Positions 50,212 to 52,062 of a stretch of 64,000 bases of DNA are shown one piece after another. This DNA comes from Dictyostelium discoideum (taxonomy: Eukaryota), in the NCBI GenBank assembly GCA_000004695.1, contig CM000153.2, positions 160,001-224,000 on the forward strand. The letters are read 5' to 3'. A program made the translations under genes and the position numbers. The first letter of the stretch is position 1. Each line of letters starts with the position of its first letter. The notes under the pieces were generated by a model, which saw only the letters and a list, made by a program, of their open reading frames with translations, ran no database searches and was not told where the DNA came from.

Positions 50212-52062
50212 TTAAACTAATCTCTTGAGACCTGGTACTTTTGAAACAGCACGATGCATACCTGAATGTGGATGGAAACGAGCAAAGGTAACACAACCTG
50301 CAGTTGCTGAAATGATAACGAATAAAGAACAACCAGAAGCAATGAGACCAATTTGCCAGCCAGCTAATAATGGGTCAACGTGGATGGCACCTTTTTGATT
50401 ACGATTGGAAAAGTTGTTATTACGAGTGGACATGTAATAGTATGAACCAGTCTTTGACATTTTTTGGACACCACCATTGAAACGAGTACCAGCATTATTT
50501 AAGACCATACAATTTTGTGGATCAACTTCGACGGCATCTTTGTTGTTATTGTTTTTAGTCATGAGTTCATCATAGGTTAAACAACTCTTTTGGCCAAGTC
50601 TAGCGAATCTAAGTCTAGTTTCCATATCGGCAAATAAGGCATTGTCATCGTTGAGTTCATCGTCGGTCATTGGGTAATTGTGATTGAGTGTTTTAATTTG
50701 ACACATGTTGCTACGATCAGAACCTTTGATACCAGTACCATCATAGTTTTGTGGATTGAAATCACAACCTGTCCATTGATAATGAATGTACTCGTTGACT
50801 TTGATGTGGAGAGTTTTTGGAACAAATTGATATTCTTGAGCTGGATGGGATTGGACAATGTTACCACGTTTACCCTTGACGAGGAGATTCCAGATTTTGG
50901 CTTTCTTTAAGCTGTCTGGACGAGCAATAATACTGAAAACATGAGAACGGTCTTGGAAAGTTCTGCCATATTGATTTGGATTGATGTTGAGTGTAACGTT
51001 TTGACCGGCAACAACAACATTTGGATCATTGACGTTGGTGGCACCCTTTGGACCATTTGATTTGTAATCGGTGAATTCGTCACCATTACCTTTGAGATCA
51101 GAGGAGGAGATATTGTAACGGACACGTAAAACACATGAACAAGTACCAGTGGCAATGCATGGCTCCATACCAGAGTGTGGTAATGACCAATTGTACATTG
51201 GGTTGTGACCGTCTTCAAGAACATGACCTAATGTGTTGACTTGGGTCCATTCAGCTTTGATACATTCTGGAGCACCAATATCGTGAGAGTCGACCTTGGT
51301 CCAAACACCACCTTGATTGGCACAAATTACTGGATCAATGGAACGTGGTTGGTTGTTGTTGGTGGTGGCAGCTTTGCAGTAGTATTTTGGTTGGACATTT
51401 TGTGACTCTGAACGATACCATTTGCAAAGATCACGATTATCGGTAATGATGGCAACATCCTTCCATGGTGATGGGGCCCAGTATGGGTAATAGTCACGTT
51501 CCTCTTGGCATTCGTAACCATAGTTGTTACCGTTGTTACTTTGACGAGTTCTGTCGGCATTGTTACCAATGTTTTGGTTGGCGATGAAAAGACCCTTGTT
51601 ACGTTCACGACCGGTACAATTTTGGTAGTGATGGTATGATTCATGCATACCGAACTTGTATTCGTTGGTCTCTTTGGTGGAGGATTGAGTGATGTCGTTG
51701 GCAGAGATTGTGGTAGTCACTGTACCATCACGAATGTATTCGGTATCGGCAGCTTTGGCATTATCAGTACACATGTATTGAATGACAATGTTACACTCGG
51801 TTTCACCACTACCACAACCATGTTGATTGGTCCATTCAACTGGAAGATAGGATTTTTCATACCATTCTAATGCTTCACCTCTGCAATAACCACCTTTATC
51901 ATTGTTTTGAGAGTTGAATAAACGTTGATTGTTATCTCTGTTTTGACCTTGTTCTTGATTACGATTATTACTACCTGGTGGTGAATGCATATAAATATCA
52001 CCATTAACACTTGAATATATGGTGATAATTAATAAAATAATTAAACTTGATAAAAATCTCAT
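50212..52062 (-). CDS. Cysteine-rich type I membrane or secreted glycoprotein, 616 aa, with atypically GC-rich codon usage
   Basis: The signal peptide is [21 protein letters not shown]. The ectodomain has about 30 Cys and many N-x-S/T sites. A C-terminal hydrophobic segment ([29 protein letters not shown]) is followed by a short basic tail. The coding sequence is about 45% GC with C/T-ending codons, in a genome that is otherwise under 25% GC. That is why several long antisense ORFs appear in the track. The length and composition remind me of the developmentally regulated dictyostelid protein DD3-3, but I cannot verify that from memory. Confidence 0.6.

Follow-up and report, generated by a model that had tools for sequence, protein, structure and literature searches.

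The surface protein DD3-3 of Dictyostelium discoideum: a conserved ectodomain that other eukaryotes carry in front of NOX2-like NADPH oxidases

Introduction

What is the task of a membrane protein whose ectodomain is shared by social amoebae, corals and chytrids? The question is raised by an open reading frame (ORF) in a 64,000-nucleotide stretch of the Dictyostelium discoideum genome (GenBank assembly GCA_000004695.1, contig CM000153.2, positions 160,001 to 224,000 of the forward strand), referred to below as the window. From ATG to TAA the ORF is unbroken; it encodes 616 amino acids (aa) on the minus strand and stands in the ORF list of the window at exactly 50212..52062, the limits given in a preliminary description of the sequence, which had left the strand unstated. 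That description had seen a resemblance to the DD3-3 family, and the resemblance proved to be identity: in an exact-sequence look-up, 100% of the residues agreed with D. discoideum AX4 DDB_G0283095 (XP_639227.1; UniProt Q58A42, 'Protein DD3-3'). The ORF is certainly the gene DD3-3 itself and not merely a DD3-3-like one. Neighbouring ORFs are also identical to AX4 proteins (the FNIP-repeat proteins DDB_G0283089 and DDB_G0283093, and OrcA), and the window is therefore the AX4 reference sequence.

The gene is already known, named and knocked out, and finding it is not news. Sakuragi et al. (2005), as summarised in a later paper, cloned DD3-3 and made a knockout, which aggregated faster and showed altered cyclic AMP (cAMP) signalling (PMC6208332). 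In an imaging study of Dictyostelium, DD3-3 served as the representative of single-pass plasma-membrane proteins and was seen to diffuse in the plasma membrane (PMC10022678). The literature searched gives no molecular function for it, in keeping with the 'function unknown' of the preliminary description. Here we focus on two features that bear on this function: relatives in which the ectodomain is joined to an NADPH oxidase (NOX), and a predicted cupredoxin fold that has lost its copper ligands.

A Conserved Type I Ectodomain

DD3-3 is predicted to be a type I membrane glycoprotein, in which a signal peptide precedes an ectodomain of some 545 residues, followed by one transmembrane (TM) helix and a basic tail of 20 residues, the glycosylation being read from sequons (coordinates in Table 1). 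The signal peptide and the single C-terminal TM helix had been named in the preliminary description; hydropathy and the helices of an AlphaFold2 (AF2) model (residues 2-16 and 568-596) agree on both and, together with the basic tail, give the type I topology of the family. By the positive-inside rule the tail is probably cytosolic. Cleavage is predicted before Asp22 from a V-x-G/A pattern, and this putative mature N-terminus is invariant in 43 of 43 aligned sequences and present in 90-97% of 360. The composition (19 Cys, or 3.1%; 67 Asn; five N-X-S/T sequons, with N291 and N317 kept in the family) lends no support to the heavy N-glycosylation that had been proposed.

Over 360 full-length members, roughly 50 positions are at least 97% identical. 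These include H81, H427, nine arginines, E141, E184, E187, E188, Y191, Y194, W195, D202 and five cysteines. Another five cysteines are conserved at 89-95%, and all ten that reach at least 89% lie in the N-terminal domain. Among the histidines, H81 and H427 stand at 98% and H140 at 91%. The motifs found family-wide, GRTFxDRxH, VRGxRGNIVQ and STRNNxFSNRSQK among them, are all present in the window protein. Many of the near-invariant positions lie in loops and are held across supergroups; therefore, a small chemical ligand fits better than a variable protein ligand.

The family is large. A word-indexed search returned 1,424 homologues, and a profile search of 1.84 billion representatives gave 3,514 clusters (50% identity) at E<=1e-3, with 877 at E<=1e-30. 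Identity to other dictyostelid DD3-3 proteins is 55-67%. Relatives named DD3-3 or DD3-3-like, which the preliminary description had expected a protein homology search to find, come from corals, octopus, a jellyfish, a sea cucumber and an annelid; homologues outside the dictyostelids are abundant, and the broad conservation that it had suggested is real. The family occurs in invertebrates and is absent from vertebrates (PMC6916515, PMC6208332). Its animal members have been linked to immune-type responses (PMC6916515, PMC6208332): HrSMLP1 of the ascidian Halocynthia roretzi is a haemocyte membrane glycoprotein of the allorecognition contact reaction (PMC6916515), and a sponge homologue is induced by microbial patterns (PMC6208332). 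Invertebrate proteins such as HrSMLP1 share the plan of signal peptide, ectodomain, TM helix and short tail, with 42-45% ectodomain identity for the animal members. A Pfam scan of DD3-3 found no model, the sole match being a sub-threshold one to Nis1 (E 0.22), and a PDB sequence search found no relative with either the single sequence or a 43-sequence profile. Among eukaryotic surface modules for which Pfam has no model, the DD3-3 ectodomain ranks with the more conserved.

Relatives Fused to a NADPH Oxidase

Some relatives are far longer than DD3-3. In nine of the 14 long relatives tested, the domains Ferric_reduct, FAD_binding_8 and NAD_binding_6 follow a complete DD3-3 ectodomain and TM helix. 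Such fusions account for 10 of 149 unbiased representatives at 50% identity. With the Ceratiomyxa fusion (P0142) as query, most of the best 120 clusters were fused, and 81 of the 107 newly retrieved proteins carried both domains. At least 113 DD3-3-NOX fusions are present among the retrieved proteins, and DD3-3 is N-terminal in 112 of the 113. They are found in chytrids (Spizellomyces SPPG_05133, 1,159 aa, Gonapodya, Boothiomyces, Gorgonomyces, Phlyctochytrium, Rhizophlyctis and Globomyces), the aphelid Amoeboaphelidium, Symbiodiniaceae (Symbiodinium, Durusdinium, Cladocopium and Effrenium), the diplonemid Artemidia and the amoebozoan Ceratiomyxa; marine transcriptomes contribute many of them, as complete ORFs. 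The motifs conserved in 91 fused ectodomains are the same as in 185 unfused ones.

The oxidase half has human NOX2 as its best PDB relative (E 1.6e-76). Helix III carries H-x12-H in 99 of 100 fusions, and 96 of the 100 show H-x13-H-x3-H, which includes the third, non-coordinating histidine (H119 of NOX2) that separates NOX from ferric reductases (FRE) (PMC9421330). Because NOX2 is the best match and this histidine is so widely kept, the fused oxidase is a true NOX and not a ferric reductase. On Arg54 of NOX2 we make no claim, since a regular expression for its motif hit only 37 of the 100. Unfused dictyostelid proteins annotated as 'superoxide-generating NADPH oxidase flavocytochromes' (one of them from D. 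discoideum, 517 aa) score 307-310 bits against a fused NOX module and are as near to it as two of the chytrid and aphelid fusions, whose NOX modules score 309-314 bits against the same module; a third fusion, of Rhizophlyctis, scores 359 bits.

The character of the oxidase bears on one alternative, in which DD3-3 would be an extracellular copper- or iron-handling protein that presents metal to, or takes electrons from, a transmembrane reductase, comparable to FtrB/EfeO or to fungal Fre/Fet3. Such a role would suit the conserved histidines H81 (98%), H427 (98%) and H140 (91%) with the invariant Glu/Asp/Tyr clusters, for example EERDYYPYW, the conservation of the mature Asp22, the presence of a ferric-reductase-superfamily protein as fusion partner and the abundance of the family in marine protists. 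However, the fused reductase has the NOX-specific non-coordinating histidine and is nearest to NOX2 rather than FRE, the type 1 copper ligands are gone (see below), and metal-regulated expression of DD3-3 is not reported. Metal handling is, in our judgement, improbable.

In the fusions, one hydrophobic helix is followed by a linker of about 90 residues and then by NOX TM1; a Kyte-Doolittle count of TM helices is too crude here to give exactly seven. The linker of one protein (P0302) contains an SH3 domain, a cytosolic type. This topology places the ectodomain on the membrane face on which O2 is reduced. This is the layout of DUOX, with an N-terminal ectodomain and an extra TM helix, a cytosolic linker, a six-TM two-haem domain and an FAD/NADPH domain, and in DUOX, too, the ectodomain is on the O2-reducing side. 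The likeness ends there. The DUOX ectodomain is haem-peroxidase-like, whereas that of the fused relatives is unrelated to it and DD3-3/cupredoxin-like; their linker lacks EF-hands and in some cases contains an SH3 domain; and NOX2 rather than DUOX is the nearest relative of their oxidase half. Moreover, in Dictyostelium and in animals the ectodomain is a separate protein, unlike that of DUOX. Two reports describe proteins that may be likened to these fusions by description only, as neither mentions a DD3-3 ectodomain: the 'unclassified' NOX of Chytridiomycota and early-diverging eukaryotes (PMC9421330), since chytrid fusions of the SPPG_05133 type likewise fall outside the named NOX classes, and DspNOX of the sponge Ephydatia muelleri, for which two Gene3D cupredoxin domains were reported (PMC9524095). 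In the literature searched, DD3-3 and NADPH oxidase are never named together, and the link between the two families appears to be undescribed there, nor is a fold for the C-terminal half assigned under the name DD3-3; InterPro, Gene3D and AFDB may already record the architecture or the cupredoxin assignment.

NOX is not the sole partner of the ectodomain, which is also joined to SH3 (with or without NOX), SUEL lectin, WSC, TPR and WW domains (P0302, P0244, P0242, P0147, P0390 and P0356). Some protists have SH3-NOX proteins in which DD3-3 is missing (P0469, P0490 and P0495).

A Predicted Cupredoxin Fold Without Its Copper Ligands

An AF2 model built from 43 sequences (pLDDT 80.3, pTM 0.82, the model's own measures of local and overall accuracy) divides the ectodomain into two halves. 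The C-terminal half is predicted to adopt a cupredoxin fold: in a Foldseek search, all of the 50 best matches were cupredoxin-fold proteins, and the modelled Greek-key beta-sandwich can be superposed on proteins of the plastocyanin/azurin type. One of the fusion proteins has independently been annotated at JGI as 'predicted ferric reductase/plastocyanin'. From plastocyanin, amicyanin and pseudoazurin, and from the domains of NirK and multicopper oxidases, DD3-3 differs in its replaced ligands, in an inserted helical segment of some 70 residues (about 457-526) and in the lack of significant sequence similarity. When the two ectodomain halves were compared with plastocyanin, azurin, amicyanin and stellacyanin by hhalign, no match was significant, the best (P 0.005) being a strand motif of 16 residues.

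The fate of the copper site was followed in a manual motif alignment, anchored on a 16-residue stretch that corresponds to FVPSEFSISPGEKIVF and on YYYMS, which corresponds to YSFYC. In this alignment Cys84 falls on S545, His87 on N548, Met92 on N553/R554 and His37 on R450/S451, so that none of the four blue (type 1) copper ligands is retained. The residues that replace them are themselves conserved at 90% or more, while C433 is not conserved (Ser in 58%). The model thus suggests that the ancestral copper site was rebuilt as a conserved, polar and positively charged pocket rich in Arg, Asn and Ser. Copper-less cupredoxin-like domains, those of ephrins and of the FtrB/EfeO type, are also among the nearest known counterparts of this half.

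For the N-terminal half, the model predicts a disulfide-rich domain with no confident structural relative; a comparison of the two halves by hhalign (P 0.04) is suggestive of internal similarity. Residues 22-62 (51877-51999, minus strand), an invariant segment at the mature N-terminus with the pattern D-x-Y-M-H-x-P-R-G-S-N, form a strand in the full-length model (pLDDT about 79) and are disordered (pLDDT <45) in a model that omits the C-terminal half. This loss of order suggests that the segment may pack against the cupredoxin domain.

Lytic polysaccharide monooxygenases (LPMOs) depend on an external electron donor. The N-terminal half could thus be imagined as an LPMO-like oxidative domain that acts on extracellular polysaccharide and receives its electrons from NOX in the fusions, and among the weak best matches of the model of this domain the families AA10, AA13, AA9, AA16, AA15 and AA11 do recur. 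The histidine brace of LPMO and X325 proteins, however, requires His as the first mature residue, and DD3-3 has its conserved Asp22 there. We regard this reading as very improbable.

Oxidase Partner or Recognition Protein

The fusions suggest what the free-standing protein might do. A partnership of DD3-3 with NOX is inferred because the same ectodomain and TM helix precede a NOX2-like oxidase in one polypeptide elsewhere, in a DUOX-like arrangement. D. discoideum has NoxA, NoxB and NoxC, the p22phox homologue CybA, and NcfA (PMC5758549). DD3-3 would act on the outer face of the membrane with a NOX-type oxidase, the candidates in Dictyostelium being NoxA, NoxB or NoxC with CybA, and would either process or consume the superoxide or H2O2 that comes from the outer haem, or gate the oxidase. 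Oxidase and ectodomain would be separate proteins in Dictyostelium, and DD3-3 would damp a superoxide signal that promotes aggregation. Scavengers of extracellular reactive oxygen species (ROS) inhibit Dictyostelium aggregation, and nox and cybA mutants are developmentally defective (PMC5758549); because of the scavenger effect, the faster aggregation of the knockout can be read as a stronger superoxide signal.

That DD3-3 is functionally linked to NOX or ROS is the reading we prefer, at slightly less than an even chance. In its wider form the proposal is more tentative, and we lean against it more than towards it: DD3-3 would represent, in free-standing form, an ancient NOX ectodomain of eukaryotes, which together with NOX would make a second capped type after DUOX. 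The two would share a single chain in chytrids, aphelids, dinoflagellates, diplonemids and some amoebozoans; two separate genes would encode them in dictyostelids and invertebrates, with DD3-3 as a trans subunit that shapes or senses NOX-derived ROS through the converted copper-site pocket.

Several points weigh against an oxidase partnership. Dictyostelium DD3-3 is itself unfused, with TAA directly after the 20-residue tail, and no NOX-like sequence is found within the 64-kb window. Domain fusion elsewhere is only circumstantial for an unfused protein, and the step from the fusions to an unfused protein that works with NoxA, NoxB or NoxC is one that we infer. On a crude neighbour-joining tree the fused forms cluster, with about nine state changes among 301 tips, which means that they may be a paralogous subfamily with a function of its own. 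The joining of the ectodomain to SH3, WSC, SUEL lectin, TPR and WW domains would also fit a generic sensor ectodomain. No redox cofactor site was identified in the ectodomain, from which the blue-copper ligands are absent, and every statement on its fold rests on a predicted model. Vertebrates have NOX and no DD3-3, so the partnership is not obligatory. Finally, the fit to the knockout phenotype, known here through the summary in PMC6208332, is post hoc.

The variety of partners is also what one would expect if DD3-3 were a surface glycoprotein of recognition or adhesion, a self-marker or receptor with no redox chemistry, whose ectodomain binds protein or glycan and for which NOX, SH3 and TPR are alternative outputs. 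Ephrins use a cupredoxin fold that has no copper for protein recognition, and the modelled C-terminal half would be of this kind. Antibody cross-linking of HrSMLP1 sets off the allorecognition contact reaction (PMC6916515), and a single-pass protein that diffuses in the plasma membrane (PMC10022678) would be well placed for such a role. Yet recognition ectodomains usually evolve fast, and DD3-3 keeps its roughly 50 positions at 97% identity or more in organisms as distant as amoebae, corals, dinoflagellates and chytrids. NOX greatly outnumbers every other fusion partner, and its active site and the ectodomain share one side of the membrane. HrSMLP1, moreover, has a single gene, and it is the sugar chains that the antibody sees, so that the variability lies outside the conserved protein core (PMC6916515). 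A recognition protein of this sort is therefore a reading that we think unlikely.

Codon Usage and Base Composition

DD3-3 stands out from its surroundings in composition. The guanine plus cytosine (GC) content of the ORF is 39.9%. The window has 22 ORFs that reach 150 aa, and none of the others is as GC-rich (0.15-0.37); the window as a whole averages 22.3%, and the flanks of DD3-3 have 14-22%. The preliminary description was right about a GC-rich ORF in an AT-rich neighbourhood; its value of about 45% is approached only as a peak (44.8%) in windows of 400 nucleotides (nt). At third codon positions the gene has 27% C, 41% T, 25% A and 7% G. The C/T bias that had been noted is thus present, at 68% pyrimidine, yet its distinctive part is C: a pyrimidine excess is common in the window (39-68% in the other ORFs), whereas third-position C is 3-9% in most of them, the two others above 9% being the ORF at 39920-41425 (19.5%) and one with a superoxide dismutase (SOD) domain (13.5%). 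Similarly, C-ending codons make up 0.44 of all NNC and NNT codons (Phe, Tyr, His, Asn, Asp, Cys and Ile summed) in DD3-3 and about 0.1 in most ORFs; the same two exceptions reach 0.444 and 0.219.

C-ending codons, AAC above all, are commoner in highly expressed D. discoideum genes (PMC8321536). We used the codon frequencies of the 1,000 most and the 1,000 least expressed genes (Table S3 of PMC8321536) for an expression-type score, the mean log2(high/low) per codon. DD3-3 comes first of the 22 ORFs with +0.497, followed by +0.138 for the next and by -0.39 to 0.00 for the remaining 20; an average gene of the top 1,000 with the amino-acid composition of DD3-3 would score +0.168. Its choices follow those of the highly expressed class (AAC, ATC, TTC, TAC, CTC, GTC, ACC, GCC and CGT), with CGT for 21 of 30 Arg, GGT for 44 of 47 Gly and CCA for all 25 Pro. 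Codon usage is thus shifted strongly towards the C-ending, CGT, GGT and CCA codons that highly expressed Dictyostelium genes favour, more so than in an average gene of the top class, and it points in the direction given in the preliminary description, that of a putatively highly expressed gene. The classical codon adaptation index against the top 1,000 genes was set aside as uninformative: its reference still favours A/T-ending codons, and DD3-3 (0.65) falls within the range of the other ORFs (0.53-0.81). As to the developmental induction that the same description ascribes to the family, DD3-3 is in both the UP and the DOWN lists of suspension development with cAMP pulses and absent from the filter-development lists (Rosengarten 2015).

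The bias also touches the overlapping frames. Four further ORFs within the gene had been described as antisense artefacts of it, but only the last, of 75 codons, is antisense to DD3-3; the other three are read from the strand of DD3-3 itself, in the +1 frame. Over the DD3-3 coding sequence (CDS), the +1 frame has 14 stops, the +2 frame 56 and the three antisense frames 32-41 each, and the antisense frames are therefore not notably open. The earlier logic, by which a third position poor in A and G removes stops from an overlapping frame, holds, although for the other strand than had been supposed: because A and G are scarce at third codon positions, the +1-frame ORFs are by-products and not genes. 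The antisense ORF is most likely a chance opening.

Neighbouring Features

On both sides of DD3-3 are homopolymer A/T runs of 28-80 nt. Its 5' intergenic region, of about 10-14% GC, holds an (AATA)36 microsatellite placed 300-440 bp upstream of the ATG. Downstream, two of the three FNIP-repeat paralogues fall into one cluster at 90% identity, which points to recent tandem duplication.

The SOD-domain ORF has the second-highest GC content (36.8%) and codon score (+0.138) of the window. As read, it has no exact match among stored proteins, and the gene model probably differs. It was considered as a functional link to DD3-3 and rejected, the two being 42 kb apart in a eukaryotic genome. The codon usage of the ORF at 39920-41425 is unusual in this genome: C/(C+T) is 0.44 and C3 19.5%, yet the CGT/GGT preference of expressed genes is missing. 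This ORF may be transposon-derived or a pseudogene. The first piece of the carboxylesterase-family gene runs into a low-complexity read-through of poly-Ile/Phe, which is intron-like. A tRNA scan of the 64-kb window found none.

Table 1. Positions of DD3-3, its parts and other features, counted from the first nucleotide of the window
Feature	Position	Strand	Remarks
DD3-3 CDS (DDB_G0283095)	50212..52062	-	Intronless, complete; 616 codons and TAA at 50212-50214
Predicted signal peptide, residues 1-21	52000..52062	-	Hydropathy peak 1-19; AF2 helix 2-16; conservation
N-terminal ectodomain half, residues 22-345	51028..51999	-	Predicted rich in beta-strands and disulfides; motifs WTNQH(81)GCG, GMH(140)ES, TRQ; conserved sequons N291, N317
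C-terminal ectodomain half, residues 346-566	50365..51027	-	Predicted cupredoxin-fold beta sandwich with helical insertion
Predicted single TM helix, residues ~567-596	50275..50364	-	AF2 helix 568-596; hydropathy peaks 566-596
Short basic tail, residues 597-616	50215..50274	-	HPHS motif, 50-70% in 185 unfused relatives
Off-frame ORF	50667-50867	-	Sense +1 frame, offset 1 from CDS
Off-frame ORF	50907-51224	-	Sense +1 frame, offset 1 from CDS
Off-frame ORF	51327-51644	-	Sense +1 frame, offset 1 from CDS
ORF, 75 codons	51643..51870	+	Antisense to DD3-3
TATAAATA element	52213-52220	-	Read from sequence, DD3-3 5' region; no function shown
(AATA)36 microsatellite	52358..52501		Tandem Repeats Finder; 36 copies, 91% matches; no function shown
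Cu/Zn superoxide dismutase-domain ORF, 355 aa	7774-8841	-	PF00080, two stretches, E 2e-31
OrcA	22130-24025		Exact match
GH9 cellulase	35013-36524
ORF, 501 aa	39920-41425	-	No Pfam match; no exact match in protein collection
Carboxylesterase-family gene	43029-43637, 43976-44917	+	PF00135; two ORF pieces, AT-rich stretch between
FNIP-repeat paralogue DDB_G0283089	45098-46531	-	Tandem, immediately downstream of DD3-3
FNIP-repeat paralogue, unnamed	46705-48093	-	Tandem, immediately downstream of DD3-3
FNIP-repeat paralogue DDB_G0283093	48398-49741	-	Tandem, immediately downstream of DD3-3
Nipped-B/SCC2-type cohesin loader	57095-63472	+	Multi-piece; Cohesin_HEAT, Nipped-B_C, PHD-like Cys motif; long poly-Q/poly-N tracts

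Significance

DD3-3 represents a large family with no assigned biochemical function that spans amoebae, corals, molluscs, echinoderms and ascidians and recurs in screens of invertebrate immunity, allorecognition, regeneration and metamorphosis. The recurrent NOX2-like fusion and the predicted copper-less cupredoxin domain turn 'function unknown' into a concrete hypothesis that can be tested cheaply. Dictyostelium is well suited to such a test, as the strains for it (the DD3-3 knockout and mutants of nox and cybA) and assays of ROS are available. If the hypothesis is true, it would give the NOX field a new accessory module and would explain the 'unclassified' NOX of chytrids and protists.

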